From Methanomassiliicoccales archaeon (GTDB lineage Archaea; Thermoplasmatota; Thermoplasmata; Methanomassiliicoccales; JACIVX01), in the NCBI GenBank assembly GCA_029907465.1, contig JARYLV010000003.1:3871-67870 (forward strand): 64,000 nucleotides of DNA, in the 5' to 3' direction. Made by a program: the position numbers and the translations under genes. Below are positions 830 through 43,124 of this stretch, piece after piece. Position 1 is the first letter of the stretch, and every line of letters begins with the position of its first letter. The notes beneath the pieces were generated by a model that made no database searches, was not told where the DNA came from, and saw nothing but the letters and a program-made list of their open reading frames with translations.

Positions 830-902
830 TAGCCCCGGGCAGATTCGAACTGCCGTCGCAGGATCCAGAGTCCCGCATGATTGACCGCTACACCACGGGG
901 CT
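830..902 (-). tRNA. tRNA-Gln (anticodon CUG), no encoded CCA
   Basis: The reverse complement reads AGCCCCGTGGTGTAGCGGTCAATCATGCGGGACTCTGGATCCTGCGACGGCAGTTCGAATCTGCCCGGGGCTA (73 nt). The acceptor stem pairs AGCCCCG with CGGGGCT. The anticodon loop is CTCTGGA with CTG central. The T arm is GGCAG-TTCGAATC-CTGCC. Confidence 0.9.
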
Positions 903-28635: not shown

Positions 28636-29058
28636 ATGTTAGATCACCTAGATGAGAAAATCATTGAGATCCTGAAAAAGGATTCTAGAAGGCCCTTTGT
28701 CGATATCGCGAATCAGCTCAAGGTATCGGAAGGAACTGTGAGAAGCAGGGTCAGGCGGCTCGTCGATGATGGAATAATCAAAAGCTTTACAATCAAGACA
28801 AGCAACAAGAACGTTAAAGCAATCATCGAGATAAAGATCAATGTTAATGTCAACACATCAGTTGTGGCCAGCGAAATCTCAAAATTTGAAGGTGTCTCTG
28901 AGGTTTTTGAGGTAACGGGCGATGAGGATATTGTTGTTATCGTTGACGTCAATTCATCACCCCAGCTAAACGATATCATCGAAAGAATAAGACAATTTGA
29001 AAACGTCCAGTCAACGAGAACAAGACTCATCCTTAAGGATCATTTTGGAGGATCGTAA
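28636..29058 (+). CDS. Lrp/AsnC family transcriptional regulator
   Basis: The HTH reads LDEKIIEILKKDSRRPFVDIANQLKVSEGTVRSRVRRL. A RAM/ACT-like C-terminal domain follows. Confidence 0.9.
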   Translation: MLDHLDEKIIEILKKDSRRPFVDIANQLKVSEGTVRSRVRRLVDDGIIKSFTIKTSNKNVKAIIEIKINVNVNTSVVASEISKFEGVSEVFEVTGDEDIVVIVDVNSSPQLNDIIERIRQFENVQSTRTRLILKDHFGGS

Positions 29059-29937
29059 ATGTTTTATGGTTGTGCAACGGCGATCATCACACCTTTTAAG
29101 GAAAATGGCGAAATCGATGAGGAAGGACTGAGAGAACTCGTGTCATTTCAAGAAGAACAGGGGATCGATGCTATCGTGCCCTGTGGCACAACCGGTGAAT
29201 CCGCGACTTTGACGCATGAAGAGCACATTAAGGTCATCAAGATTGTTGTCGATCAAGCGCGAAGAGCAAAGGTCATCGCTGGCGCTGGCAGCAATGCAAC
29301 ACATGAGGCAATTTTTCTGAGTCGAGCTGCGAAGGACTTAGGAGTCGACGGAATCCTTTCTATTTCGCCATATTATAATAAACCGACACAGAAGGGGATT
29401 TTTGAACACTACGAAAAAATTGCTCAGGCCGTCGATTTGCCAATTATCATCTACAATGTGCCGAGCAGGACTGGTTCAAATATTGAGGTATCGACTGTCG
29501 TTAAGCTTGCGGAAATCCCAAACATCGTCGGCATCAAAGAAGCGAGCGGCAATATTGTTCAGGTGATGAACATACTGGCTCAAGCCCCAAAAGGGTTCGT
29601 CGTTCTATCGGGAGATGATGTTCTTACATATCCAATGATGACTCTTGGCGCGAAGGGCGTTGTTTCAGTCGCTTCAAATGTTGTTCCATCAATGGTCAAA
29701 TCAATGGTTGATCTCCTCCTAAATGGCAATTGGGAAGATGCCAGGAGACTGCACTTCAAACTCCTCCCCCTTTTTAAGAACCTCTTCATCGAAACGAATC
29801 CGATCCCTGTCAAGACCTCGCTTAGGCTGATGGGAAAACCAGCTGGTTCGTTTCGATTGCCTCTCTGTGAAATGAGCCAGTCTAATCTTGAGATTCTTAG
29901 GAAGACGCTTCTTGATCTCGGCGTGATCTCAAAGTAA
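29059..29937 (+). CDS. dapA: 4-hydroxy-tetrahydrodipicolinate synthase
   Basis: Motifs include GTTGES, YNVPSRTG and the catalytic Lys region VGIKEASG. Confidence 0.95.
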   Translation: MFYGCATAIITPFKENGEIDEEGLRELVSFQEEQGIDAIVPCGTTGESATLTHEEHIKVIKIVVDQARRAKVIAGAGSNATHEAIFLSRAAKDLGVDGILSISPYYNKPTQKGIFEHYEKIAQAVDLPIIIYNVPSRTGSNIEVSTVVKLAEIPNIVGIKEASGNIVQVMNILAQAPKGFVVLSGDDVLTYPMMTLGAKGVVSVASNVVPSMVKSMVDLLLNGNWEDARRLHFKLLPLFKNLFIETNPIPVKTSLRLMGKPAGSFRLPLCEMSQSNLEILRKTLLDLGVISK

Positions 29938-29968
29938 TTAATGATCACAGCGTAAGAATGGTGGGATC

Positions 29969-30748
29969 ATGATCAGGGTTGTAGTTGGTGGTGCAACAGG
30001 GAAAATGGGGAGTGCAATTTGCAGATTGCTGACAAAGCAGAAAGACATGGAACTCCACGGCGCCGTCGTATCCAGGGGCGGAGGCAATGTTGGAAAGAGA
30101 ATTGAAGGTGGCGTGGTCGCGCTTGGCGATGATCAACTTGATAAAGCATTGGAAGGTGCGGATGTCTATGTTGATGTCACTACGCCCGCGGCCGCAGAAA
30201 AAAATCTCATAAGAGTACCGCCGCTGGGCGTTAATATCGTCGTCGGGACAACTGGAATATCATCAGATACGATGGCCAAATTCGCCGCCTCGGTGAGACG
30301 ACACGGTGTTTCGGCTGTCGTCACTCCGAATTTCTCAATCGGTGTGAATGCGTTCTGGAAATTATGCGGTGAGATGGCGGCAGTTCTCAAAGATTATGAT
30401 GTGGAGATCATCGAATTTCACCACAATCAGAAGAAAGACGCACCTTCTGGAACCGCCATGAAAGCAGCTGAAATCATCGGCGAGAAGATTGGTATCAATA
30501 AATTCGTCAAAGGGAGAGACGGGATCACGGGTGTGCGAAACAAGGAAATCGGCATTCATTCATTGAGGGGGGGCGATGTCGTCGGCGAACATACAGTTGT
30601 ATTCGCTGGGAACAGGGAGAGACTTGAACTAACCCATCGCGCCCATTCGAGGGATGCATTTGCCGAAGGGGCACTTGCTGCGATCAGGTGGATATGGCAG
30701 AGGAAGGATGGGAAGATACACACGATGAGCGAGGTGTTGGGGCTTTGA
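29969..30748 (+). CDS. dapB: 4-hydroxy-tetrahydrodipicolinate reductase
   Basis: The EFHHNQKKDAPSGTA motif is present. The N-terminal Rossmann motif reads GATGKMG. Confidence 0.95.
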   Translation: MIRVVVGGATGKMGSAICRLLTKQKDMELHGAVVSRGGGNVGKRIEGGVVALGDDQLDKALEGADVYVDVTTPAAAEKNLIRVPPLGVNIVVGTTGISSDTMAKFAASVRRHGVSAVVTPNFSIGVNAFWKLCGEMAAVLKDYDVEIIEFHHNQKKDAPSGTAMKAAEIIGEKIGINKFVKGRDGITGVRNKEIGIHSLRGGDVVGEHTVVFAGNRERLELTHRAHSRDAFAEGALAAIRWIWQRKDGKIHTMSEVLGL

Positions 30749-30756
30749 TCAAAGTA

Positions 30757-32100
30757 ATGAAGTTTGGCGGGACAAGTGTGGGCTCTCAACAAGCGCTCGA
30801 CCAAGTAATCGAGATTATAGCAAACGAATGTTCAAAAAAGGCTGTCGTCGTTTCTGCGCAATCAGGCGTGACGAATTCTTTGATCGCATGGATGAAAGAC
30901 GATACCCAAGGAATCGATTCGATCATCTCGTTCCTCGAAACGAAATATTTCGAACCTGTAATAAATAAGCTGGATGAGGCGGGGATGCAGAAATATGAAA
31001 ATCACATTAGAGAATCGCTTCTTCAGCTAAGAAAAATCCTCGAGCGATATAGAAATAATCTCGAAAACTCCTTGCAGGACACGATTGCGAGTTGGGGAGA
31101 ACGATTGTCAGCGATCATGCTCTCGTATTTGTTGAATGCACGGGGTGTTGATTCTGTCCCGATGAGTGCTGAGGACGCTGGGATCGTTGCTTTAGGTATT
31201 CACGGCAATGGGTCAGCCGACCTCGATGCAACAGCTAAGAATTTCAAGAAAACAATCCTGCCCCTAATCAATAGCGGAAAGATCCCTGTTATAACTGGAT
31301 ATTACGGTTGCGACAAAAACGGAAGGCCGATAACCTTTGGGCGCGGTGGTTCAGATTATTCAGCGGCTGTCGTTGCCTATGGAATATCAGCTGACTGTCT
31401 TGAAATCTGGACGGACGTCGATGGGTTTATGACGGCTGATCCGAGAATAGTGCCAAACGCAAAGACAATCAAAGAAATGGATTACGGAGAGGCCGGCGAA
31501 CTCGCATATTTTGGCGCCAAAGTTCTACATCCGAGAACGATCGAACCTGTGAGAAGAAAGAAGATCAGATTGGTCGTCAAGAACACCTTCAACCCCAATG
31601 GTAGTGGCACTCTCATACATAGTCTCCGATCACCAGGAAAAACGCTACTAAGGAGCGTGGCCATCAAATCGGATCTCTCAATCGTAAAGATCTATTCATC
31701 GGAAATCGCGTACCAACCAGGGTTCGTATCGGATCTCTTGGCCGCGATTGGCGAGGATGGCGTAACGACTTATGCGATCTCAACATCACTTTCCACCCTT
31801 GCCGTTGTAATCCCTACTTCAGAAGTCCCACAGGCGCTCAAGAAAATCAATGAACTGAAAGAATCGCGCATGGAAAAACTGATGGTCAAGAACAACATGT
31901 CCCTGATCTGTGCAGTTGGTGATAACATGATCGACACGATGGGCGTCGCCGCACGGATATTCCAGGTCGTCGAAGAGGCGCAGGCGAACGTCGAATTGAT
32001 CTCCGAAGGGGCATCAGATATCGCACTGAATTTCGTTGTCCCGAGTGATAGGGCCCCAGACGTTGTGAGAATGCTCCACGATCGGTACATAGGTGGTTAA
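30757..32100 (+). CDS. lysC: aspartate kinase
   Basis: The N-terminus reads MKFGGTSVGS. The kinase core is followed by two C-terminal ACT domains. ATG 30757 is preferred over the track start at 30688, which would overlap dapB. Confidence 0.9.
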   Translation: MKFGGTSVGSQQALDQVIEIIANECSKKAVVVSAQSGVTNSLIAWMKDDTQGIDSIISFLETKYFEPVINKLDEAGMQKYENHIRESLLQLRKILERYRNNLENSLQDTIASWGERLSAIMLSYLLNARGVDSVPMSAEDAGIVALGIHGNGSADLDATAKNFKKTILPLINSGKIPVITGYYGCDKNGRPITFGRGGSDYSAAVVAYGISADCLEIWTDVDGFMTADPRIVPNAKTIKEMDYGEAGELAYFGAKVLHPRTIEPVRRKKIRLVVKNTFNPNGSGTLIHSLRSPGKTLLRSVAIKSDLSIVKIYSSEIAYQPGFVSDLLAAIGEDGVTTYAISTSLSTLAVVIPTSEVPQALKKINELKESRMEKLMVKNNMSLICAVGDNMIDTMGVAARIFQVVEEAQANVELISEGASDIALNFVVPSDRAPDVVRMLHDRYIGG

Positions 32101-33361
32101 TTTGAGGCAATTTGAGTGCGTCAACGGGGAGATGGTAATCGGGGGAATCCCTGCGACAAAGATCGCAGACAGGTTCGGTACCCCAGTGTACGTAACAGAT
32201 GAACTGGCACTCCGGGAAAACTTCAGAAGGATTAACAAGGCCTTTTCCTGCCACATGCCGACTCACATTCATTACGCCTGCAAGGCGAACACTAACATTG
32301 CTATCCTGAGAATACTCAAACAAGAGGGGAGTTACATCGATGCGGTGTCGATTGGTGAAGTTGAAACATGCCTGAGAGCTGGTTTCCCACCCGAGAGAAT
32401 CATGTTCACGGGTGTGTGCGTCTCGACGAAAGAGCTGGAGGCTGTGGCTTCGAAGGGAGTTCTCATCAATATTGATTCATTCTCGGAAATGAAAAGATTG
32501 GCAGCTCTCAAGTCTCGCATTCCGATTTCGATCAGGGTCAATCCAGACGTAGGAGCTGGACATCATGATCACGTTGTCACGGGAAGCAGGAAATCCAAGT
32601 TTGGAATCCCCTTGACAAGCATCATGGAAGCGTATTCACAGGCTCTCGATCTCGGGTTGATCCCAGTAGGCCTTCATGCGCATATCGGCGCGGGAGTGCA
32701 GGAAATCGATCCATTCGTCAAGGTCACCGATGTTCTCGTGTCAATCGCGAAGGAACTTGAGGAAAAACTCAAAATTGAACTCGAATTCATTGACATTGGG
32801 GGCGGCATCGGTATCCCATACAGACCAGACGAAAAATCGATGGACGTCGATCTGCTCGCGCGGGAAGTCACATCGAGAATTAAAGCGGGATGTTCTGTTA
32901 GAACAGTGGCAATTGAGCCAGGAAGATACATTGTGGCCGACACTACCGTACTGCTCACGAGGGTGGTCGACATAAAAGAGACACCTGAGAAGAACTTCGC
33001 TTGCGTGGACGCGGGATTTAATATCCTCATCAGGCCTTCATTCTATGGTTCATACCACCATATCGCTGTTGCTAATAAGTTTGAGGCGCCAGGGGAAGTG
33101 GTCTACGATATCGTTGGACCTATTTGTGAATCTGGTGATTTTCTGGCAAGGGACAGGCTTCTGCCGAAACTGGACGAGGGGGACTTACTCGCTGTATATG
33201 ACGCAGGTGCATACGGTTTTTCAATGAGCTCCCAATATAACTCAAGGCCGAGGTGCCGTGAATTACTGATCTACAACGGAACCGTGAACATAATTCGAGA
33301 AATGGAGACTATTGATGACATATTGCGGCATCAGAAGGTACCCTCGAGGCTGATGGTTTGA
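32093..33361 (+). CDS. lysA: diaminopimelate decarboxylase
   Basis: It has the PLP-Lys motif YACKAN, plus GGGIGIPY and CESGD. A GTG start overlaps the lysC stop. Confidence 0.95.
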   Translation: MVNLRQFECVNGEMVIGGIPATKIADRFGTPVYVTDELALRENFRRINKAFSCHMPTHIHYACKANTNIAILRILKQEGSYIDAVSIGEVETCLRAGFPPERIMFTGVCVSTKELEAVASKGVLINIDSFSEMKRLAALKSRIPISIRVNPDVGAGHHDHVVTGSRKSKFGIPLTSIMEAYSQALDLGLIPVGLHAHIGAGVQEIDPFVKVTDVLVSIAKELEEKLKIELEFIDIGGGIGIPYRPDEKSMDVDLLAREVTSRIKAGCSVRTVAIEPGRYIVADTTVLLTRVVDIKETPEKNFACVDAGFNILIRPSFYGSYHHIAVANKFEAPGEVVYDIVGPICESGDFLARDRLLPKLDEGDLLAVYDAGAYGFSMSSQYNSRPRCRELLIYNGTVNIIREMETIDDILRHQKVPSRLMV

Positions 33362-34191
33362 AGTTTTGGAAGTATCATGGGATAGGCAACGATTTCATAC
33401 TATTCGACGATTCTCAGTGTCGGCTACAACTCTCGAAAAAGAAAATTGTAGACCTATGCGACAGACACTATGGAATCGGTGCAGATGGGATCCTTGTCCT
33501 CGAGCAGTCACGTGATGCCGATGCCAAAATGAGGGTTTTCAACGCAGATGGCAGTGAGGCAGAAATGTGTGGCAACGGGATCAGATGTATGGCAAAGCAC
33601 CTCTATGATTTTTCGATTGTCAGGAAGGAAAAAATGAGAATTGCAACATTAAGCGGTATTAAAGAAGTGCGATGCATCGTCCAAAATGATGAGGTTGACG
33701 AGGTCATTGTAGATATGGGCAGACCCTCTCTTGACTGCTCGTCAATTCCAATGAAATGTGAGGGTCAATTTATTCAGAAGGTTATCGATGTGGGTGGACG
33801 GCAGATCCAAGGGACAGCAGTATCGATGGGTAATCCTCATTTCGTGACTTTTGAGGATTTTAGTCCCGATGAAATGAGAATTTTAGGTCCTTTGATTGAA
33901 AAACATCCCGTTTTTCCGAGAAGAACGAACGTGGAGTTCGCGAGAATCGATGCGAAGAGAATCGTCGTCGACGTCTTTGAACGGGGTGCTGGGTGGACAC
34001 TTGCTTGCGGTACTGGGGCATGCGCGGCTGCCGTCGCGGCTGCGATCGCTGGACTTGTCAAATTCGATGAAGAGACTGAGGTGCGGTTGCCAGGAGGAGG
34101 TCTCTGGGTGACTGTCCCAAAGGACCTATCATCGGTCACAATGCGTGGTCCAGCTGTCCGAGTTTTTTCTGGGGAGATTGAGTTGGAGTGA
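33358..34191 (+). CDS. dapF: diaminopimelate epimerase
   Basis: Motifs include GIGNDF and the catalytic cysteines in MCGNG and ACGTGA. A TTG start overlaps the lysA stop. Confidence 0.9.
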   Translation: MKFWKYHGIGNDFILFDDSQCRLQLSKKKIVDLCDRHYGIGADGILVLEQSRDADAKMRVFNADGSEAEMCGNGIRCMAKHLYDFSIVRKEKMRIATLSGIKEVRCIVQNDEVDEVIVDMGRPSLDCSSIPMKCEGQFIQKVIDVGGRQIQGTAVSMGNPHFVTFEDFSPDEMRILGPLIEKHPVFPRRTNVEFARIDAKRIVVDVFERGAGWTLACGTGACAAAVAAAIAGLVKFDEETEVRLPGGGLWVTVPKDLSSVTMRGPAVRVFSGEIELE

Positions 34192-34196
34192 TCAAT

Positions 34197-35348
34197 ATGG
34201 CACATGAGGTTGCAGAAAGACTGAAAAAGATTCCTCCGTATTTGTTCGCTGATATCGAAGCAAAGGTCAGAGCGAAGAAAGCCGAAGGAGTTGACATCAT
34301 CGACTTTGGAATTGGAGACCCAGATATTCCGACACCAAATGAGATTGTGGAAGAGATGATCAGACAGGCGCGGGATCCCGTCAATCATCAGTATTCAACG
34401 AGTGCTGGTGAAATTGAGACAAGGAGAGCCGTTGCTGAGTGGTACATGAGGAGGTTCGGCGTCGATGTCGATCCTGAGAAAGAAGTCGTCATCACGATGG
34501 GAAGCAAAGAGGGCCTCGTGAATATCTGTAGAGCATTTGTTAACCCCGGTGATGTGGTGCTCGTTCCTGACCCCGCATATCCAGTCTACGCTCAAGGAGG
34601 TACCCTACTCTCAGAGGGCATTCCCATGAGAATCCCGTTGCTCGCTGAGAATAACTTTCTTGTTGATATTGAGAGTCTGCCTAGAAACGGAAAAATGCTT
34701 TTTATCAACTATCCCAACAATCCAACCGGTGCTGTCGCTACAAAAGAGTTTTTGAAAAGGATCGTGGAATGGGGGAGAGATACGGGGACGATCATCTGCT
34801 ATGATAACGCTTACTCGGAGATCACCTTCGATGGCTACACCGCACCAAGCATTTTGGAATTTGGAAGAGATTGCATTGAATTTGGATCGTTTTCGAAGAC
34901 CTTCAATATGACGGGGTACCGGATCGGATACGCTGTCGGTAGCGAGGATCTTATCGCTGGCTTGAAAAAAGTGAAATCCCAAGTCGACTCTGGCGTTCCA
35001 AAATTCATCCAAAAGGCGGCGATCAAAGCCCTGAAAGAGTACGAGTGTATCGGAAGACCAGCCTCTGTTGAGAAGAATTGTGAGATCTACAGGGGCAGGA
35101 GGGATGCATTCGTCACAGGTCTTCGGAAACTGGGATTCAACGTGGAGCCACCGCTCGGAACCTTTTATCTCTGGTTCCCAGTCGAAGGAAAATCGATGGA
35201 GTTTTCGAAAAAGCTTCTAGACGTGGGGGTCGTCGTAACCCCGGGAGTCGGATTTGGTGAATACGGCGAAGGATATGTTCGTGTTGCTCTCACACAACCA
35301 GTAAGTCGCATAAAAGAAGCGCTTGAACGGATGGAACGGGTTTTATAG
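34197..35348 (+). CDS. dapL: LL-diaminopimelate aminotransferase (DapL-type class I aminotransferase)
   Basis: Motifs include KIPPYLFADIE and the PLP-Lys motif SFSKTFNMTGYRIGY. A GGAG Shine-Dalgarno lies 6-8 nt before ATG 34197. GTG 34188 is an alternative start. Confidence 0.8.
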   Translation: MAHEVAERLKKIPPYLFADIEAKVRAKKAEGVDIIDFGIGDPDIPTPNEIVEEMIRQARDPVNHQYSTSAGEIETRRAVAEWYMRRFGVDVDPEKEVVITMGSKEGLVNICRAFVNPGDVVLVPDPAYPVYAQGGTLLSEGIPMRIPLLAENNFLVDIESLPRNGKMLFINYPNNPTGAVATKEFLKRIVEWGRDTGTIICYDNAYSEITFDGYTAPSILEFGRDCIEFGSFSKTFNMTGYRIGYAVGSEDLIAGLKKVKSQVDSGVPKFIQKAAIKALKEYECIGRPASVEKNCEIYRGRRDAFVTGLRKLGFNVEPPLGTFYLWFPVEGKSMEFSKKLLDVGVVVTPGVGFGEYGEGYVRVALTQPVSRIKEALERMERVL

Positions 35349-36575
35349 TTTCCTGTTCACAGCTGCTTTTAGCGCTTCGACAGCTGGAAGCGGTTTCCCC
35401 ATTAGAAATGTCTCGAGTGCTCCCCCACCTGTGCTCACATAAGAAAGCCGATCGACGAGTTTCAGAGATTCAGCAACCCCCACCGTATGTCCACCTCCGA
35501 TGACCGTGTAAGCATGTGATGCGGCCATCGCTGTCAGAAGTTCCTTCGTCCCGATCAAGAATTCTTTTTTTTCGATCATGCCAGCAGGTCCTGACATGAA
35601 GACGGTCTTTGCATTGTAAATCACCTTGACAAACTTCTCGATCGATGCTCTCCCAATATCCCGTATTGGGTATTCCGATGGGAGGTCTCCGACAAATAGT
35701 TCTCTACGTCTACCGTCGACCTCAATTGCAACATCGTGAGGCAGTAGGATATACTCGCCCTTTTCCTCTAGGAGTTTCTTCGCCGCTTCAAGATCTTCCT
35801 GAGTCAAGTTACTAGAAAGGGGGGCATCATTTACCTCCCCAAGATCGACTCCTCTTGCTTTTAAGAAAGCATTCGCAGATAGACCGACGAGGATAACCAT
35901 AGTCGCAATCTTTTTGCTAACCAGTCGAGTGACGACGGGGACAATATCGGACACTTTTGCCCCACCAAGCACGAAGACAGATGGCTTCATGGGATTCTCG
36001 AATAATTTCTTCAGTGCAGAAAGTTCCTTTTCCATTAATCGTCCTGCCGCAGACGGGAGAACCGCTGGGAAACCAACGAGCGAACAATGAGCCCTGTGAG
36101 ATGCGGCAAACGCATCGTTAACGTAAAGATCTACGAGCGGCGCGAGGACACTCACAAGTTCTGATTTTGAGTGCTCCTCCTGCGATTTTTTTTCCTGTTC
36201 ATACGGCAATTCTCTCACGTTCTTCAAAATGATCGCTTCACCTGGCTGGAGTTCTCTAATCGCCTTAATCGCCTTCTCGCCGATGAGATCGTCTACATAA
36301 CGGACCTCTTTGCCGAGATGTTTGCTGAGGACAGCAGCATGTTTATCGAGGGGGGCAAAGTCCCAGTCACCAGGTCGCCCCTGATGAGCCAGTATGACCA
36401 CTTTGGCATGCTTACTCAGCAACTCTCCCACCGTCGGAACAATCTGTCTGATGCGGTTGTCGTCCTCGATCTCTAGCGTATCTCTCTTAAGCGGGCAGTT
36501 GATGTCGACCCTAAGCAACACAGTCTTGTGCCTTACATCGAAGTCATCGAGAGTGTTGTACTCTTTCATAGCCAT
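35343..36575 (-). CDS. pgk: phosphoglycerate kinase
   Basis: RVDINCPL is present and similarity runs the full length. The 3' end overlaps the dapL 3' end by 6 nt (convergent). Confidence 0.95.
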   Translation of the reverse strand: MAMKEYNTLDDFDVRHKTVLLRVDINCPLKRDTLEIEDDNRIRQIVPTVGELLSKHAKVVILAHQGRPGDWDFAPLDKHAAVLSKHLGKEVRYVDDLIGEKAIKAIRELQPGEAIILKNVRELPYEQEKKSQEEHSKSELVSVLAPLVDLYVNDAFAASHRAHCSLVGFPAVLPSAAGRLMEKELSALKKLFENPMKPSVFVLGGAKVSDIVPVVTRLVSKKIATMVILVGLSANAFLKARGVDLGEVNDAPLSSNLTQEDLEAAKKLLEEKGEYILLPHDVAIEVDGRRRELFVGDLPSEYPIRDIGRASIEKFVKVIYNAKTVFMSGPAGMIEKKEFLIGTKELLTAMAASHAYTVIGGGHTVGVAESLKLVDRLSYVSTGGGALETFLMGKPLPAVEALKAAVNRKL

Positions 36576-36578
36576 ACC

Positions 36579-37598
36579 TCAGAGGATATACGAAAGGAAA
36601 TCGACAAGTCGACTTGAGTATCCCCATTCATTGTCGTACCAGCATAGCACCTTGACTAAATTACCTTTTTCCTTCACAACCATCGTACTTGGAGCGTCGA
36701 CAACTGATGAGCGGGGATCACCTACAACATCGACGGAGACGATCGGTTCCTCAGAATACCCTAGTAGACCCTTCATGGAACCTTCGGCAGCCGTTCGCAA
36801 CGCCTCGTTCACCGTGTCTCTATCAACACTTTCCATGACCATGACAGTAAGATCCGTAATTGAACCGTCGGGGACGGGCACCCGAAGAGCAACGCCGTTG
36901 AGTTTTCCTTCGAGCTCTGGCAAGACTTGAGAGACAGCTCTAGCAGCACCAGTTGTTGTGGGGACGATAGAAAGCGGGGCTGCCCTCGCCCTTCTCAGAT
37001 CAGTATGCGGGAAGTCCAGTAGCCTCTGATCACTTGTGTAAGCGTGAACCGTCGTCATGAGGCCAGAGACTATTCCAAAGTTGTCGTTCAAGACTTTTGC
37101 AGGGAGTGCAACACTGTTCGTTGTGCATGATGCCATTGAAATGATGTGATGTTCGCCTTTATCATAATCCTCCAAATTTGCACCGAGAACGACAGTAATA
37201 TCCGGATTGGTTGCTGGTGCGGTGATAAGAACTTTCCTTGCACCAGCATCTAGATGGAGTTTGCACATTTTCCTGTCTGTAAAGAAACCTGTCGATTCAA
37301 TAACAACATCGACCTCCTCACGCGCCCATGGTAGTTTCGAAGGGTCTTTTTCAGAAGTGAACTTGACGATTTGGTCATTGATTACTAGATTGCCACCACT
37401 TGGCCGAATTACTGCATCAAGCATCCCATGCACGCTGTCGTATTTCAATAAATACGCAAGTGTCTTAGCATCGGCAAGATCATTCACCGCAACAATTTCA
37501 AAATCCCTGAGATAATTCTCTCGCTGGATAGCACATCTGAAGAATGACCGACCAATTCTGCCGAAACCATTTATAGCGACTCTAATCGTCATACGCAA
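36579..37598 (-). CDS. gapA: type I (bacterial/eukaryal-type) glyceraldehyde-3-phosphate dehydrogenase
   Basis: Motifs include INGFGRIGR, the active site SCTTNS, and the WYDNEWGYS C-terminus. Confidence 0.95.
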   Translation of the reverse strand: MRMTIRVAINGFGRIGRSFFRCAIQRENYLRDFEIVAVNDLADAKTLAYLLKYDSVHGMLDAVIRPSGGNLVINDQIVKFTSEKDPSKLPWAREEVDVVIESTGFFTDRKMCKLHLDAGARKVLITAPATNPDITVVLGANLEDYDKGEHHIISMASCTTNSVALPAKVLNDNFGIVSGLMTTVHAYTSDQRLLDFPHTDLRRARAAPLSIVPTTTGAARAVSQVLPELEGKLNGVALRVPVPDGSITDLTVMVMESVDRDTVNEALRTAAEGSMKGLLGYSEEPIVSVDVVGDPRSSVVDAPSTMVVKEKGNLVKVLCWYDNEWGYSSRLVDFLSYIL

Positions 37599-37650
37599 AT
37601 AAAAGGGAGGTAAAAGGGTAAAAAGGGTTGCCCCTTATTGATTAGCTTAT

Positions 37651-38667
37651 TCATTTGCCTATACCAAGGGTCTTATCAGTTTTCCTGATTGATCTCAATG
37701 GATCTTTTTCGAGCTTCATCATGGCTCTGATGCAGTCAATATTTTCTGGTATCACATCGCTTTCTTGGTGCACCGCTTGATAGTAGTAAAGCGTGCTGTT
37801 AACCACTTTGACCCCGTCTTCCCAAACGATGATCTCCATGAAATCTCCACGGGGCCGATTGAGATCCCTAGCTAGTTCCATGATCTGCGCGGATGATTTA
37901 ATCCCGTGTTTGCCGCTCACAAATTTAATTCTAGGAACCTTGTCCCAAACCGACAGGATATCTTCGTCTTTTGCTTTTTTCTTCAGGTCGACGGCGAGGC
38001 AATGGACATGCATTTGTGTTGTCGGCGTCACTACCGCCATTGTCTGGATATTAAGCCAAGGCATAATGGTCTGTACGTCTGGTCCGTGATGCGTTGGCAG
38101 TTTCAGAGTAGGTTCGATTGCATTGAGAGCTGCTCCTTTGCGATCTGCGGGATCCGCGCCTCTTCGTATGAGGGCGGCGAATGCTCTTTCAATGCCAAAG
38201 ACCTTGTCGATCGGGTAAAGTGTCCGTATTAGACCAGTGGTATTGCAGCTGACGACGCGAACGAAGCGCGCACCCCAGGCTTCGTGATAATTTGCGAAGG
38301 AATTGAATGAAATACCAGCAACACCGTGCTTCTCACCGCCTTGGAAAATTGCCTTAACACCAGCTTTTTCATACATCGGCTTGTAGACGGCACCGACATC
38401 GCCTGGTGTCGCGTCAACGATGATATCCACCTTTGAGAGAAGGTCTTCTAGAGTCCCCGCGACCTTTATGCCATCTTTCTCAAATGCTTCAATATGCTCG
38501 GGTCTGGCGGCATATAAGGGGATTCCTTCCTTGATCGCAAGCCGTGCCTCATAGCTCGGTTTCGTTTTTGTAACACCCACGACTTCCATGTCGTCCTGTT
38601 TGGCAATGGCGAAGGCTATTCTCTTGCCGATTGTTCCATAACCATTGATGCCAACTTTCACCTTCAT
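37651..38667 (-). CDS. gap: type II (archaeal-type) glyceraldehyde-3-phosphate dehydrogenase
   Basis: The N-terminus reads MKVKVGINGYGTIGKR. The active site reads VSCNTTGL. ATG 38667 is preferred over the track start at 38748. Confidence 0.9.
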   Translation of the reverse strand: MKVKVGINGYGTIGKRIAFAIAKQDDMEVVGVTKTKPSYEARLAIKEGIPLYAARPEHIEAFEKDGIKVAGTLEDLLSKVDIIVDATPGDVGAVYKPMYEKAGVKAIFQGGEKHGVAGISFNSFANYHEAWGARFVRVVSCNTTGLIRTLYPIDKVFGIERAFAALIRRGADPADRKGAALNAIEPTLKLPTHHGPDVQTIMPWLNIQTMAVVTPTTQMHVHCLAVDLKKKAKDEDILSVWDKVPRIKFVSGKHGIKSSAQIMELARDLNRPRGDFMEIIVWEDGVKVVNSTLYYYQAVHQESDVIPENIDCIRAMMKLEKDPLRSIRKTDKTLGIGK

Positions 38668-38785
38668 GTTTCTCTTCCTCGCCGTTCTTGAAACTGCTGG
38701 GGACCAATATTCTGATACGATCTCCCGTTTTCGGAATCTAAATCGCAATATTTGAATCTGCGCGGTTCTAGCAATTTAGTACAAC

Positions 38786-39778
38786 TTAAAGATCCCAGTA
38801 CTTTCTCTGAATGTTAATGACCCTCTCGACAGATTCTCTGTTGATCGTCTCGACATTCTTGGGCTGTTCTCTATTCATAGGAATCTCTTTATTACAAATT
38901 AAACCACCGAGGCCTGCGAGTACCTCCGCTGTTGCCTCAAGATCATAACCTCCCTCGAGAATGAATGCAATCTTACGATCAGGAGATATATCGATCAATT
39001 TGCGACAAAGTTCGAGGTAACCAATCGTTGATAGCCTCAGCGAAGCAATTGGGTCGGCATAATGGGCATCAATTCCGATACTGACGAGCAGGCATTCAGG
39101 ATCGTACTGTTCGATTACGGGCTTGATAATCCTATCAAACGCGAAAAGATAGGTTTCGTCTCCGACGCCACTTCTCAATGGAATGTTGATTGTATACCCT
39201 TCACCTGTCCCTGTGCCGACATCTTCAGCGGCACCAGTGCCAGGATAAATCCCATACTGGTGAGTTGAGATGAAAAGTACCTTGTCATCGTCAAAGAAAA
39301 TATCTTCGGTACCATTTCCGTGGTGCACATCGATGTCAACGATCGCGATTCTATCGAGGGAGAGTTTTCTGGCCGCGATCGCTATATTATTGAAGTAACA
39401 GAATCCCCCACAGAAGTCCTTCCCCGCATGATGTCCAGGCGGCCTTACCAAGGCAAGAGCTGGTCGACAGGAATCGTAGGCAATCCTTGCAGCGGCAATC
39501 GCACCTCCTGCAGCAAGCAGGGCAATCTCATATGTTTCCTTACGGATATAAGTATCTGGATCGAGAAATCCTTCTTTCGCCGTTTTAATTCTTTCGATAT
39601 GGTCTTTCGTATGGACAAGCAGAAGGTCTGTGTCGGAGGCTGGTTCGGGTCTGATGACATCCTTCCACACGCTTGTATCCAACATCTTCCTTACTGCAAA
39701 AACAAGTCTGTCTGGACATTCAGGATGGCCACTATATTGAAAATGATCAAGATATCTTTCGTGAAAGACGATCGTCAT
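38786..39778 (-). CDS. histone deacetylase / acetoin-utilisation (AcuC-like) family deacetylase
   Basis: Motifs include RPPGHHA and DIDVHHGNGT, with a downstream GGY. Confidence 0.9.
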   Translation of the reverse strand: MTIVFHERYLDHFQYSGHPECPDRLVFAVRKMLDTSVWKDVIRPEPASDTDLLLVHTKDHIERIKTAKEGFLDPDTYIRKETYEIALLAAGGAIAAARIAYDSCRPALALVRPPGHHAGKDFCGGFCYFNNIAIAARKLSLDRIAIVDIDVHHGNGTEDIFFDDDKVLFISTHQYGIYPGTGAAEDVGTGTGEGYTINIPLRSGVGDETYLFAFDRIIKPVIEQYDPECLLVSIGIDAHYADPIASLRLSTIGYLELCRKLIDISPDRKIAFILEGGYDLEATAEVLAGLGGLICNKEIPMNREQPKNVETINRESVERVINIQRKYWDL

Positions 39779-39966
39779 CTAGACAGTATAAGAGAATTAT
39801 CCATTAAAAACACTCTCTTGACTGCGTGTGGTTAGATTGCCTCAAGAACAAATAAACGGGTAAAGAGCATCCTTGAACTTTCTCGAATCCATTACACCGC
39901 ATCATTGTGTGAATCACTAGCAAGCGTTAAATACTCGGCCTGAGATAAAGGTTGACTGTGTTTAGA

Positions 39967-40032
39967 ATGACCACGCGCTTTGATATTTCGGTGATTTCTC
40001 GTATTAGCGCAGTGGTGATCATAATTAGTTAG
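39967..40032 (+). promoter_or_regulatory. candidate branched-chain amino-acid leader peptide ORF (21 codons, MTTRFDISVISRISAVVIIIS)
   Basis: Hand translation runs from ATG 39967 to TAG 40030-40032. It contains 6 Ile and 3 Val codons out of 21, ending in GTG GTG ATC ATA ATT. It lies 55 nt upstream of ilvB. A TATA-like TTAAATA lies at 39927-39933. Confidence 0.45.
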
Positions 40033-40058
40033 AGGCATCCTCGTTGAAGGATGTCCTC
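40032..40058 (+). promoter_or_regulatory. stem-loop abutting the leader ORF stop codon
   Basis: GAGGCATCCT (40032-40041) pairs with AGGATG(T)CCTC (40048-58). This gives 10 bp with one bulged T, and the loop is CGTTGA. The first stem base is the G of the TAG stop. Confidence 0.35.
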
Positions 40059-40087
40059 ACCCATTGTTGGAGTATGGAGGGTAGCTT

Positions 40088-41758
40088 TTGAGAGGATCAA
40101 AGGCAGTTTTAGAATTACTTGAACGACACGGCGTCGAGGTCATGTTTGGATTACCGGGAGGCACCACAATTCCCCTGTACGATGACCTCCTGGATTCAAA
40201 AATACGTCACGTGCTAGTCCGTCACGAGCAATGCGCGGCACATATGGCCGACGGATACGCAAGAGCAACAGGAAGACCTGGCGTATGCACCTCAACTTCG
40301 GGACCGGGCGTGACGAATCTCATGACAGGCGTAGCCACAGCGTTTGTCGATTCCTCCCCGATGCTTGTGATCACAGGTCAAGTAGCCACCCACCTTATTG
40401 GTAATGATGCTTTTCAGGAGGCTGATTCCTTCAGCCTAATGATGCCGATCACCAAACACAACTTCAGAGTTCTCGATCCAAAAGACATCCCCGAGGCGAT
40501 CAAACGGGGGTTCAAGATCGCAACAACGGGGCGATATGGTCCGGTACACGTTGATTTGCCTGTTGATGTGATGCGCGGTGACGTACCGGATGAATTACTC
40601 GAAAGAGAGTTTCATGTGGCAAAGCCGTTAGAGGATCTATCCGATCTCCCTGAAGCGCTTAGGATGTTGCATGAGGCCGAGAGACCACTGTTGCTTGTGG
40701 GCGGAGGTGTCATTTGGGCTAATGCTTCTCCTGAGGTGCTTGAACTCGCAGAGACTCTCATGGCACCGATTGTGACGACGATCATGGGCAAAGGGGCGGT
40801 TCCGGAGAACCACCCTCTCTGCCTCGGCGTCATAGGCATGCACGGTCGAGAAGCTGCTAGAAGGGCATTCCTTGATTGCGACGTCCTCCTCGCCATCGGC
40901 ACACGATTTTCTGACAGGAGCGCAGGCAATCAGAGCATCCTTTCTGATAAAGTTAAAATCATTCATATCGATATTGACGCTGGCGAAGTTGGAAAGGGCA
41001 TGCATACGAGAGTTAAACTGATTGGCGATGCAAAAAAGATACTGAGGACAGTAATCGATCGGCTCAATGCCTCCAGAGAGGAAACGCCCTGGTCTCTTCG
41101 TATAAAAGCACTACGAGAGGAGTGCGAATGCTGTATCGATCTTGGTGGCAACCCGATCAAGCCACAGAAAGTCATTCATGAGCTCAACAAGATTTTGCCA
41201 GACGACGCGATTGTTACTACAGAGGTTGGACAGAACCAAATGTGGGCCGCACACTTCCTCAAAGTGAGACATCCGCGACAATTCATAACATCCGGTGGAT
41301 TTGGGACAATGGGATTTGGATTCCCTGCTGCTCTGGGAGTTAAGGTCGCCTTTCCAAATAGGCCCGTTATCGACATCGCAGGTGATGGGAGTTTGCAGAT
41401 GGTTTTCCAAGAGTTCGCGACAGCGGTCTGCGAGAATCTTCCCGTCATGGTCTGCCTCATGAACAACGGGTGGCTCGGGATGGTCAAGCAGTGGCAGAAG
41501 CTGTTTTGGGGGAAGCGTTATAGTGGCACAGAGTTAAGGAATAATCCCGATTTTGTGAAACTTGCCCAGGCCTTCGGAGCTGATGGTGTCGTAGTGGAGA
41601 AGCCATCAGAATTGAGGGAAGCACTGGAACGAGGTTTGAGATCTGATGTGCCATTCATCGTCGACATCCACGTCGATCCAGAAGAAGATGTTCTTCCGAT
41701 GATTCCGCCTGGTGGCGGTAAGGATCTTGTGAGGGGGCGCTGCAAATGGAGGTCATAA
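40088..41758 (+). CDS. ilvB: acetolactate synthase (biosynthetic), large subunit
   Basis: The protein is a ThDP enzyme with the motif GDGSLQM...NNG. The start is TTG, because an in-frame TAG at 40082-84 excludes earlier starts. A GGAGGG Shine-Dalgarno lies at 40076-40081. Confidence 0.95.
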   Translation: MRGSKAVLELLERHGVEVMFGLPGGTTIPLYDDLLDSKIRHVLVRHEQCAAHMADGYARATGRPGVCTSTSGPGVTNLMTGVATAFVDSSPMLVITGQVATHLIGNDAFQEADSFSLMMPITKHNFRVLDPKDIPEAIKRGFKIATTGRYGPVHVDLPVDVMRGDVPDELLEREFHVAKPLEDLSDLPEALRMLHEAERPLLLVGGGVIWANASPEVLELAETLMAPIVTTIMGKGAVPENHPLCLGVIGMHGREAARRAFLDCDVLLAIGTRFSDRSAGNQSILSDKVKIIHIDIDAGEVGKGMHTRVKLIGDAKKILRTVIDRLNASREETPWSLRIKALREECECCIDLGGNPIKPQKVIHELNKILPDDAIVTTEVGQNQMWAAHFLKVRHPRQFITSGGFGTMGFGFPAALGVKVAFPNRPVIDIAGDGSLQMVFQEFATAVCENLPVMVCLMNNGWLGMVKQWQKLFWGKRYSGTELRNNPDFVKLAQAFGADGVVVEKPSELREALERGLRSDVPFIVDIHVDPEEDVLPMIPPGGGKDLVRGRCKWRS

Positions 41759-42048
41759 GAATTATTGGCGAGAATACTCAGGGAGTCCTTCCTAAGGTTC
41801 TCTCAGAGCTCGTGCGAAGAAAGGTCGAAGTGAACAGAGCATTCGTCGAAAGGAGCGATGGTAAGGTCGAAATGGTCTTCGAAATCAGGAATTCTTCTCT
41901 CAACGGGAAACTGCTTCACTCACTCCGGAACCTTCAGGACGTCATTTCCGTCGAGTACCTAAAGGAAAAGTGCATTTGTCGCCTAGAGCTTTCGCCTGAG
42001 GAGAATTGCCAAACGGCATTCGTGGCATCACTTCGCAAAGATAATTAA
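41746..42048 (+). CDS. ilvN: short ACT-domain protein, probable acetolactate synthase small (regulatory) subunit
   Basis: The 100-aa protein has an ACT-like beta-alpha-beta-beta-alpha-beta pattern (IRIIGENTQGVLPKVLSELVRRKVEVN...). It overlaps the ilvB 3' end by 13 nt and sits between ilvB and ilvC. Confidence 0.6.
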   Translation: MEVIRIIGENTQGVLPKVLSELVRRKVEVNRAFVERSDGKVEMVFEIRNSSLNGKLLHSLRNLQDVISVEYLKEKCICRLELSPEENCQTAFVASLRKDN

Positions 42049-42125
42049 CGAGAAAGTTGAAGCGAATCTTGTTTATATTTGACATACTTTAAGGTCGCAA
42101 ATCAAATTGGATAGGTGAGATGTGT

Positions 42126-43124
42126 ATGGCGAAAATCTATCACGATAAAGATGCGGATCTAAATGTACTGAAGGGCAAGAAAATCGCTGTCCTTGGCTAC
42201 GGCAGCCAGGGTAGAGCCCAAGCCCTATGCCTAAAAGACAGCGGGTTAAATGTAGTCGTAGGTGTGAGAAAAGGTGGGAATTCCTGGGAGCAAGCTAAAA
42301 AGGATGGCGTTGCCGTCGCCGAGATTCCGGACGCTGTCAAGAACGCGGATGTTGTTATGATGCTCCTTCCAGATGAAGTTCAGGAAGAAGTTTACAACAA
42401 ATATGTGCTCCCGAACCTGAAGGAAGGTTGTGCACTCGATTTTGCGCATGGGTTTACCGTTGTTTACGGCCAGGTCAAACCGCCGAAAAATGTTGATGTC
42501 ATCATGGTCGCGCCAAAGTCACCTGGTAAGAGAGAGCGAGAGGTCTTCCTAGAGGGATTTGGCGTACCTGCACTCATCGCAGTAGAGCAGGACTACACTG
42601 GGCACGCGAAGGAGATCGTTCTTGCGCTCGCGAAGGGCATTGGGTCGACAAGAGCAGGCGTCATCGAGACTACATTCCATGAAGAGGTCACTTCTGATCT
42701 CTTCGGAGAGCAGGCGGTTCTTTGCGGCGGCGTCACTGCGCTGATTCTCGCTGGTTTCGATACACTTGTGAAAAGAGGGTATCAGCCAGAACTGGCGTAT
42801 TTCGAATGCCTTCACGAGCTAAAACTCATCGTGGATCTAATCCAAGCAGGTGGACTCGTACACATGTGGAAGAACGTCAGCAACACGGCCGAATTCGGTG
42901 GACTCACGCAGAGAGATTACATTATTACCGAGGAGACGAGAAAGGCGATGGACAGGATGCTCGATAAGATTCTCTCTGGCGAGTTTTCCAAAGAATGGAT
43001 TGCTGACTGGAAGAACGGTCTCAAGAGAATGAAAGAGTTGGAGAAACAAGAGTCGGAAAGGCTGATCGAGGTTGTTGGCAGAGAAATCAGATCACTCTTT
43101 GAAATGAAGAAAACAAACGATTGA
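42126..43124 (+). CDS. ilvC: ketol-acid reductoisomerase
   Basis: The GYGSQG NADP motif is present and similarity runs the full length. ATG 42126 (MAKIYHDKDADL) is the likely start. Confidence 0.95.
   Translation: MAKIYHDKDADLNVLKGKKIAVLGYGSQGRAQALCLKDSGLNVVVGVRKGGNSWEQAKKDGVAVAEIPDAVKNADVVMMLLPDEVQEEVYNKYVLPNLKEGCALDFAHGFTVVYGQVKPPKNVDVIMVAPKSPGKREREVFLEGFGVPALIAVEQDYTGHAKEIVLALAKGIGSTRAGVIETTFHEEVTSDLFGEQAVLCGGVTALILAGFDTLVKRGYQPELAYFECLHELKLIVDLIQAGGLVHMWKNVSNTAEFGGLTQRDYIITEETRKAMDRMLDKILSGEFSKEWIADWKNGLKRMKELEKQESERLIEVVGREIRSLFEMKKTND

Follow-up and report, generated by a model that had tools for sequence, protein, structure and literature searches.

Here we describe a short leader open reading frame (ORF), designated uORF1, that lies directly upstream of the branched-chain amino-acid operon ilvB-ilvN-ilvC in a Methanomassiliicoccales archaeon (GenBank assembly GCA_029907465.1, contig JARYLV010000003.1, positions 3,871 to 67,870 of the forward strand). 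The window is this whole stretch of 64,000 nucleotides, and all coordinates count from its first letter. uORF1 is a biosynthetic-operon leader ORF enriched in codons for the amino acids that the pathway itself makes. We read it, together with a hairpin at its stop codon, as an element that acts in cis on ilvB-ilvN-ilvC and senses branched-chain amino acids by way of the ribosome, most likely with a translational output, and assign this reading a probability of about 0.6. As judged from sequence comparison, the archaeal ilvB leader is well supported as a conserved element, and its role in attenuation is that of a candidate.

The gap before ilvB is 309 nt long and is flanked on its other side by a divergent histone-deacetylase-like gene (38786-39778, minus strand). 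An earlier note on this DNA had pointed to an unannotated ORF in the gap, and it can be read directly: it runs on the plus strand from ATG 39967 to TAG 40030-32 and encodes MTTRFDISVISRISAVVIIIS, in which nine of 21 codons are branched-chain (six Ile, three Val). It closes with the run GTG GTG ATC ATA ATT (Val-Val-Ile-Ile-Ile, 40012..40026), presumably the ribosome-stalling sensor, which is followed by AGT and then TAG and thus ends one codon before the stop. Four Ile/Val runs of at least five codons occur in the six frames of the 64-kb window, and only that of uORF1 sits in a short ORF. No gene is called in the ilvB-upstream gap in any of ten public assemblies, so uORF1 is unannotated there.

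Short ORFs are abundant, with 151 ORFs of at least 20 aa overlapping the 9 kb around the site, and the ORF might be a chance feature of AT-rich intergenic DNA. This was addressed with 20,000 dinucleotide-preserving shuffles of the gap. An ORF with an Ile/Val run of at least five arose in 0.34% of them (p≈0.003), at least nine Ile/Val among the last 21 codons in 0.2%, and both features together in 0.02% (p = 0.0002). A chance ORF is therefore unlikely by the shuffling check that the earlier note had proposed, and, with the ORF kept in all evaluable orthologs, the comparative data effectively refute the idea; the probability we leave to it is negligible.

The ORF is preceded by an archaeal promoter (39920..39934, plus strand), read directly as a BRE-like AGCAAGCG followed by a TATA box, TTAAATAC, the column of which is kept in clades A and B of the relatives. 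The TTAAATA at 39927-33 is followed 23-24 nt downstream by a conserved GTG (39958-60), in the same frame as ATG 39967 and three codons upstream of it. The usual spacing of archaeal TATA boxes puts the transcript start at the leader start codon. The TATA box stands 22-24 nt before the leader-opening GTG or ATG in 18/18 clade A and 9/9 clade B sequences, and the TG of the leader start codon is invariant in all 18 aligned clade A sequences. Because the conserved GTG follows the TATA box at this distance, the ORF probably has 24 codons (MFRMTTRF...) and is leaderless. uORF1 would then span 39958..40032, encode M FRM TTRFDISVISRISAVVIIIS, and form the predicted leaderless first cistron of a transcript starting at ~39958. 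The TATA-like element had thus been identified correctly in the earlier note, while the start, which it had placed at ATG 39967, is more probably GTG 39958. The transcription start predicted from the TATA spacing falls at or before the ORF, not downstream of 39967, where it had been said to count against the leader. ilvB always has its own Shine-Dalgarno sequence, as expected of an internal cistron. The output of a bacterial promoter scan was disregarded as irrelevant to archaea.

Two further features of the clade B leaders (L005-L008, L083, L086, L087, L147) were observed. A conserved CATTGCGA-like motif lies after the TATA box, ~8-15 nt before the leader ATG, and the leader ORFs contain invariant CTAGGGGTCCT and CCTGCGG blocks, the first of which includes an anti-Shine-Dalgarno-like UCCU.

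A short ORF at the same position, with a tail rich in Ile, Val and Leu, was found in 27/27 evaluable Thermoplasmata ilvB loci with an IlvB identity of at least 60% (10 from genomes, 7 from metagenomes and 10 fetched via protein look-ups), and it ends 48-68 nt before ilvB. The composition of the tail alone is kept in these leaders; the other residues and the nucleotides diverge, which is the pattern sought in the comparison of orthologous leaders suggested earlier. Within clade A, the peptide of L161 is identical to that of the window, that of L021 is MSMTATRSNISDFSIIGAVVIIIS, and others end in ...SLLGVVVVLIR (L001 and L168), ...SVSVVGIIIR (L004), ...AIVVLRLGVVVVI (L170) and ...RIILVILTLVL (L009); the clade B tail reads ...PILVVLGVLVDLRILRP. 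The enrichment is specific to the frame: of the last 12 codons, averaged over a 17-locus subset, 7.3 are Ile, Val or Leu in the ORF frame vs 1.8 and 2.1 in the other two frames, which contain stop codons, and the proteome average for these residues is 25%. When the window is compared with L161, conservation is higher in uORF1 than in ilvB, with 74/75 nt identical vs 268/300 (89%) in the first 300 nt of ilvB; the upstream gap is identical at 83/146 positions (57%), and the loop of the stop-codon hairpin at 3/6.

When 156 ilvB upstream regions were scanned without bias, strong branched-chain short ORFs numbered 21 on the coding strand vs two on the reverse complement. Additional matches came from Archaeoglobi, a DHVE2 archaeon and unassigned metagenomic lineages, all with the same layout of a branched-chain-rich ORF, a stop codon and a hairpin directly after it. 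The leader ORF was not found in lineages in which ilvB is not first in the operon, nor in Methanomethylophilaceae or Bathyarchaeia. We consider it reasonably probable that a family of leaderless branched-chain-rich uORFs, each with a hairpin at its stop, regulates the ilvB operon in Methanomassiliicoccales and other Thermoplasmata as well as in Archaeoglobi, DHVE2 and further lineages, with a translational output in some and termination at oligo-U in others.

Individual lineages differ in detail. In the Archaeoglobi loci L065, L126, L121, L111 and L043 the branched-chain-rich leader ORFs end 23-40 nt before ilvB (e.g. ...GVVILVGIIVVLL), and in the DHVE2 locus L079 the leader ORF ends 116 nt before it; in L065, L126, L121 and L079 a small hairpin and then T6-T7 come after the ORF, immediately ahead of the Shine-Dalgarno sequence. 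The Archaeoglobi/DHVE2 arrangement looks like an archaeal-style terminator attenuator. The unassigned lineages L141, L150, L146, L099 and L091 have leader ORFs with Ile/Val/Leu tails and a very stable hairpin (-13 to -29 kcal/mol) 0-4 nt past the stop, which in L141 and L150 ends 2 nt before GGAGGTG.

The comparative data also bear on whether the peptide itself is the product. uORF1 could encode a small hydrophobic protein with its own function, such as a membrane peptide, or be a constitutive uORF that loads ribosomes on a leaderless operon with no sensing. The hydrophobicity of the C-terminus would suffice for a membrane anchor, and archaea translate many small ORFs to which no function has been assigned. 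However, what is kept across clades is the composition of the tail and not a sequence motif, the ORF is tied to ilvB in several orders, and the residues enriched in the tail are the very amino acids that the pathway makes. Furthermore, this reading would give the covarying hairpin that abuts the stop codon no role, and we regard this explanation as very improbable.

The 171-nt leader region folds better than its shuffles (z = -2.97), and the consensus fold of clade A leaders, computed for 8 sequences and afterwards for 18, has two helices only, designated P1 and P2. P1 is a stem-loop inside uORF1 (39970..40016, plus strand), present in the minimum free energy fold and in the RNAalifold consensus of both the 8 and the 18 sequences. 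In the window, ACCACGCGCU (39970-79) pairs with AGCGC-A-GUGGU (40006-16), of which ACCAC (39970-74) and GUGGU (40012-16) form the consensus core, joined by a variable extension. The first Val codons of the terminal run therefore form the 3' strand of P1. In the alignment, 91% of P1 cells are paired, and two pairs show compensatory changes.

P2 (40032..40058, plus strand) has the G of the TAG stop as its first base, and folding confirmed the 10-bp hairpin that had been reported at this place. Positions 40032-41 pair with 40048-58 (GAGGCAUCCU with AGGAUG-U-CCUC), leaving U40054 bulged and a 6-nt loop. In the 18-sequence alignment 92% of the cells are paired, vs 39-54% with the partners slid; six pairs show compensatory change, and no shuffle reached the observed covariation. 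P2 is conserved in clades A and B, again with 92% of cells paired when the two are taken together (29-54% with the partner slid, over the P2 alignments), and its basal pairs vary among GC/AU/GU and among AU/UG/CG/UA. The frequent G-U pairs point to a plus-strand RNA structure rather than a palindrome in the DNA. In clade B the hairpin is lengthened by a basal helix in which the last two codons (CGCCCG) pair with a downstream CGGGCG. P2 starts at the stop codon in both clades, and a stop-abutting hairpin is present in at least five lineages; in the other lineages the post-stop hairpin has a stability of -5 to -29 kcal/mol and lies 0-4 nt from the stop in most loci, with L126, L040 and L079 as exceptions.

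That P1 and P2 covary, and that the leader is more conserved in nucleotides than ilvB, would also suit a structured RNA or protein-binding element, such as the operator of an RNA-binding regulator or a metabolite-sensing RNA, in which the ORF is incidental. In that case, however, it would be hard to see why the reading frame, the start at the predicted transcription start, the position of the stop and the frame-specific Ile/Val/Leu enrichment are all kept where the sequences of P1 and P2 differ entirely. Also, no Rfam family matched. We hold this alternative to be improbable. The central proposal of the earlier note, a regulatory Ile/Val leader ORF upstream of ilvBNC that is coupled to a hairpin at its stop codon, is supported by the conservation, the frame specificity, the shuffles and the covariation.

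Two local hairpins were seen in the folds of the window and its nearest relatives and are absent from the clade consensus fold: P3 (40059-82, plus strand), which covers the ilvB Shine-Dalgarno sequence GGAGG (40076-80), and P4 (40084-40104, plus strand), which covers the TTG start. Opening the ilvB ribosome-binding site in the window, buried as it is by P3 and P4, costs ~10 kcal/mol.

That P2 conceals a start codon in its 3' arm is well supported by the alignments. A purine-UG stands at this position in 28/29 loci examined (the exception is L084); in the window it is the AUG at 40051..40053 on the plus strand, which opens a possible second small ORF, uORF2 (40051-40122, MSSPIVGVW...), that crosses the ribosome-binding site and start of ilvB out of frame. 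The uORF2 frame reads MSSxIV in clade A, where it shows synonymous-type variation (ATT/ATC/ATA, GTT/GTC/GTA), and MSVRA in clade B. The corresponding frame occupies 2963-3004 in L021, 2971-3000 in L002 and 2963-3004 in L004, and its TGA overlaps the ilvB start (TTGA/ATGA) in L021 and L004. In L001, L164 and L165 the P2-embedded start, a GTG in L164 and L165, continues into the ilvB frame, and publicly annotated IlvB proteins begin at this codon (568-569 aa; P0012-14, P0027). The resulting 13-aa N-terminal extension reads MSSIIVSIRRAIL-LKGSK... in P0012-14 and LWVSSLIVRDVLF-VRGSK... in the L001 type. Four nucleotides after P2, clade A alignments show a conserved CAUUGU motif (40062..40067, plus strand), for which no pairing partner was found and which reads Ile-Val in the frame of AUG 40051. 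Translation of uORF2 is not well supported, and it is treated here as a putative ORF only. The window also contains a five-codon mini-ORF, ATG GAG GGT AGC TTT TGA (40074-40091), with an ATG that overlaps the Shine-Dalgarno sequence and a TGA that overlaps the ilvB TTG (TTGA).

From these features we infer stalling, the direction of regulation and a translational output as follows. Transcription would start at ~39958, giving an mRNA that begins with the start codon of the 24-codon uORF1. When charged tRNA-Ile or tRNA-Val is scarce, the translating ribosome would pause on the Val-Val-Ile-Ile-Ile run, where it would block P1 and, on the last codons of the run, also invade the 5' arm of P2. With P2 kept open, expression of ilvB would rise; with amino acids plentiful, the ribosome would terminate and depart, P1 and P2 would refold, and expression would be low. 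The output would be translational, of the type found in ermC/cat or in mycobacterial leaderless short ORFs: once P2 is open, the buried start codon would become accessible, as would single-stranded RNA 5' of the ilvB Shine-Dalgarno sequence, and the ribosomes that enter would unfold P3 and P4. The conserved geometry, in which the run ends one or two codons before the stop and the hairpin begins at the stop, suggests a ribosome that dwells at the end of uORF1 and keeps both the hairpin and P1 unformed. In the window the last codon of the run (40024-26) lies 8 nt before the first base of P2 (40032), such that the stall site would overlap the hairpin arm; a ribosome reaches ~12 nt 3' of its A site.

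Several observations weigh against this mechanism. Only stalls on the last one or two codons of the run reach P2, and then just its basal 4 bp; the claim that a stalled ribosome occludes the 5' arm thus fits the geometry for these codons and fails for the earlier ones. The buried AUG 40051 has no properly spaced Shine-Dalgarno sequence. The motif after P2 is kept in L167 as AUUGUUGG with the frame shifted. The uORF2 stop lies near the ilvB start in 9/16 loci vs 3/16 and 6/16 for the control frames, a difference that is not significant; the control frames also score because an A-starting second ilvB codon creates ATGA or TTGA. Neither the 3' arm of P2 nor the ORF tail pairs better with the ilvB ribosome-binding site than shuffles do. 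Across clade A the accessibility of that site changed little and without consistency, and in the window it stayed flat. Translational coupling between uORF2 and ilvB was accordingly rejected, its stop placement being no commoner than in control frames.

The accessibility values come from a switch test in which ribosome footprints were masked and the opening energy of the ilvB ribosome-binding site was computed. With the ribosome early in the run, the site opened more easily than with the ribosome at the stop in 13/17 loci, including 9/9 in clade B, which is the direction that the translational reading predicts. When only the downstream RNA was free to fold, the effect was small (clade B means 3.0 and 4.6 kcal/mol), and L021 alone showed it clearly. 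An effect this modest lends no consistent support to a thermodynamic switch at that site. The ilvB Shine-Dalgarno sequence itself lies outside P2.

A classical four-region attenuator was rejected, as progressive 5' truncation in consensus folding gave no alternative helix in clade A. The truncation folds of clade B gave a weak helix only, between the anti-Shine-Dalgarno GGUCCU and the Shine-Dalgarno GAGGAG, and this was not better than shuffles. Mutually exclusive antiterminator and terminator hairpins (1:2, 2:3, 3:4), which the earlier note had suggested looking for, were not found by RNAalifold in full or 5'-truncated alignments, and the arms of P2 showed no alternative partner that is conserved. 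That note had also seen no strong oligo-T after the hairpin, and this stands: the T-run of the window is T4 (40086-89), which overlaps the TTG start, the terminator scan found no site after uORF1 in the window, and neither clade A nor clade B has a conserved oligo-U or T-run. With no terminator, no conserved oligo-U and no alternative helix, the leader does not have the bacterial terminator/antiterminator design, and the earlier note was right to leave the mechanism open. It had further proposed that ATCCTC in the hairpin arm (40037-42) pairs with GAGGAT at the start of ilvB. The pairing is present in the window, with GAGGAT at 40092-97 rather than 40091-96, and is not conserved; it was rejected as a conserved element, its target being ilvB codons 2-3, which read AATGGC or AAGGGC in L021 and L164, the nearest relatives from another sub-lineage, and in L004.

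The main rival shares the sensor with the translational reading and differs in the output: the folded P2, with P1, would promote a premature 3' end before ilvB, either intrinsically at a U-rich stretch or through a factor (aCPSF1/FttA), and the stalled ribosome would prevent it. Parallels exist in E. coli, where a TnaC-stalled ribosome blocks Rho and a tightly coupled ribosome blocks the pyrBI terminator. The geometry of run, stop and hairpin fits the steric blocking of a hairpin or factor site, the CAUUGU after P2 is U-rich, and termination is irreversible, unlike a purely thermodynamic switch at a ribosome-binding site. In Archaeoglobi and DHVE2 the T6-T7 after the post-stop hairpin, an archaeal termination signal, makes the idea attractive for those lineages. 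In clades A and B, by contrast, the absence of a conserved oligo-U speaks against it, as do the window's T4 that runs into the TTG, its lack of a scanned terminator after the ORF and the failure to find an antiterminator alternative. Moreover, archaeal intrinsic termination is not known to need a hairpin, and under factor-dependent polarity a stalled ribosome would be expected to raise termination, not lower it. We therefore consider 3'-end control unlikely, though a serious contender, and retain the ribosome-mediated sensor with translational output as the preferred reading.

The operon itself is assigned as follows. ilvB, for the large subunit of acetolactate synthase, occupies 40088..41758 on the plus strand with a TTG start (40088-90), just 5' of which are an in-frame TAG (40082-84) and the GGAGG Shine-Dalgarno sequence (40076-80). 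Its product has Pfam TPP domains and is 95% identical to its nearest public protein, P0001 ('biosynthetic-type acetolactate synthase large subunit', Methanomassiliicoccales archaeon), and 60-85% identical to many other proteins of Methanomassiliicoccales and related Thermoplasmata. It is followed on the same strand by a gene for an ilvN-like small subunit of 100 aa (41746-42048), which overlaps the end of ilvB by 13 nt and has no Pfam match recorded in relatives, and by ilvC, for ketol-acid reductoisomerase (42120-43124). The gene order GAPDH-like, deacetylase, ilvB-ilvN-ilvC, cyclophilin-like is common to the relatives.

Elsewhere in the window, a lysine (diaminopimelate) operon at 28636-35348 comprises dapA, dapB, aspartate kinase, lysA, dapF and an aminotransferase; a gene for an Lrp/AsnC-type regulator stands at its head, and no Lys-rich leader ORF is obvious. 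Two neighbouring GAPDH-like genes (36579-38748, minus strand) lie beside phosphoglycerate kinase (35343-36575), and the second of them is divergent, with a DapB_N-like N-terminus. Nothing convincing in the way of similar leaders was found elsewhere in the window or in the flanks of the fetched loci. At gathering score, Rfam gave no match in the whole window except one tRNA gene (830-902, minus strand), and in 39850-40150, at E up to 10, it gave nothing beyond chance-level snoRNA matches.

Leader-peptide attenuation is the classic case of coupled transcription and translation used for regulation and is regarded as bacterial. Archaea also couple the two processes, with a eukaryote-like polymerase, hairpin-independent termination and many leaderless mRNAs. 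If the reading of a conserved family is true, archaea possess ribosome-mediated leader-peptide sensing in which, unlike the bacterial switch, the stalled ribosome is itself the anti-hairpin element. Such a family would provide a concrete, mutable model for amino-acid signalling by archaeal ribosomes, for the use of leaderless short ORFs and for the control of termination or initiation by ribosome position. Many genomes would gain a regulatory gene that their annotation now lacks, and the IlvB N-terminal extensions (MSSIIV...) produced by gene callers in some assemblies would be explained. As the earlier note had supposed, a literature search found no published archaeal amino-acid-sensing leader ORF, only leader-peptide attenuators of bacteria; in ribosome-profiling papers on archaea, upstream ORFs are described as no more than 'reminiscent' of leader peptides.

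Among known systems, the leader resembles the attenuators of E. coli ilvGMEDA and ilvBN (also trp, his, leu and thr) in that a short ORF rich in Ile and Val (and Leu) stands directly before branched-chain genes, with ribosome speed as the presumed signal. The E. coli ilvGMEDA leader peptide reads MTALLRVISLVVISVVVIIIPP..., and the peptides are strikingly alike in composition (…ISAVVIIIS in the window, …ISVVVIIIPP in ilvGMEDA). Unlike these attenuators, the archaeal leader has no terminator/antiterminator pair, no hairpin with oligo-U and no Rfam leader match; its run occupies the far end of the ORF, next to a single hairpin, its mRNA is predicted to be leaderless and to be made from an archaeal TATA promoter, and its host has an RNA polymerase that terminates differently. 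In ermC and cat-86, the ribosome is arrested close to the end of a short leader ORF and enters the 5' arm of a neighbouring hairpin, the 3' arm of which hides the initiation signals of the next ORF. The stall at the leader end and the hairpin with a start codon in its 3' arm are what our proposal shares with this arrangement, although arrest in ermC/cat-86 is caused by antibiotic and nascent peptide, not by a lack of charged tRNA, and the genes serve resistance, not biosynthesis.

In the leader-peptide attenuator of Corynebacterium glutamicum ilvBNC, translation of the peptide uses no ribosome-binding site (PMC11857589; Morbach et al. 2000 as cited there). This attenuator controls the same ilvB-ilvN-ilvC operon through a leaderless-like leader peptide and works transcriptionally through three hairpins (terminator, antiterminator and anti-antiterminator), whereas here only P1 and P2 are conserved and there is no terminator. 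In the mycobacterial polycysteine leaderless short ORFs, mutation has shown that a duplex sequesters the Shine-Dalgarno sequence of the next gene (bioRxiv 10.1101/834739). As in our proposal, the first cistron of an amino-acid biosynthesis operon is there a sensory short ORF with a leaderless start; a run of codons for the pathway product stalls ribosomes, these keep an mRNA structure from forming, and translation is what is regulated. In contrast, the hairpin described here holds a start codon and not the ilvB Shine-Dalgarno sequence, no consistent anti-Shine-Dalgarno pairing was found, and the amino acids and the domain of life are different. Since the closest proven systems are bacterial, and neither an archaeal precedent nor an Rfam match was found, we class the ilvB leader as an archaeal variant of a known form of regulation. 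The comparison supports the view that ribosome-mediated sensing by this leader ORF would work like a leader-peptide sensor rather than a 'bacterial-style' terminator attenuator.

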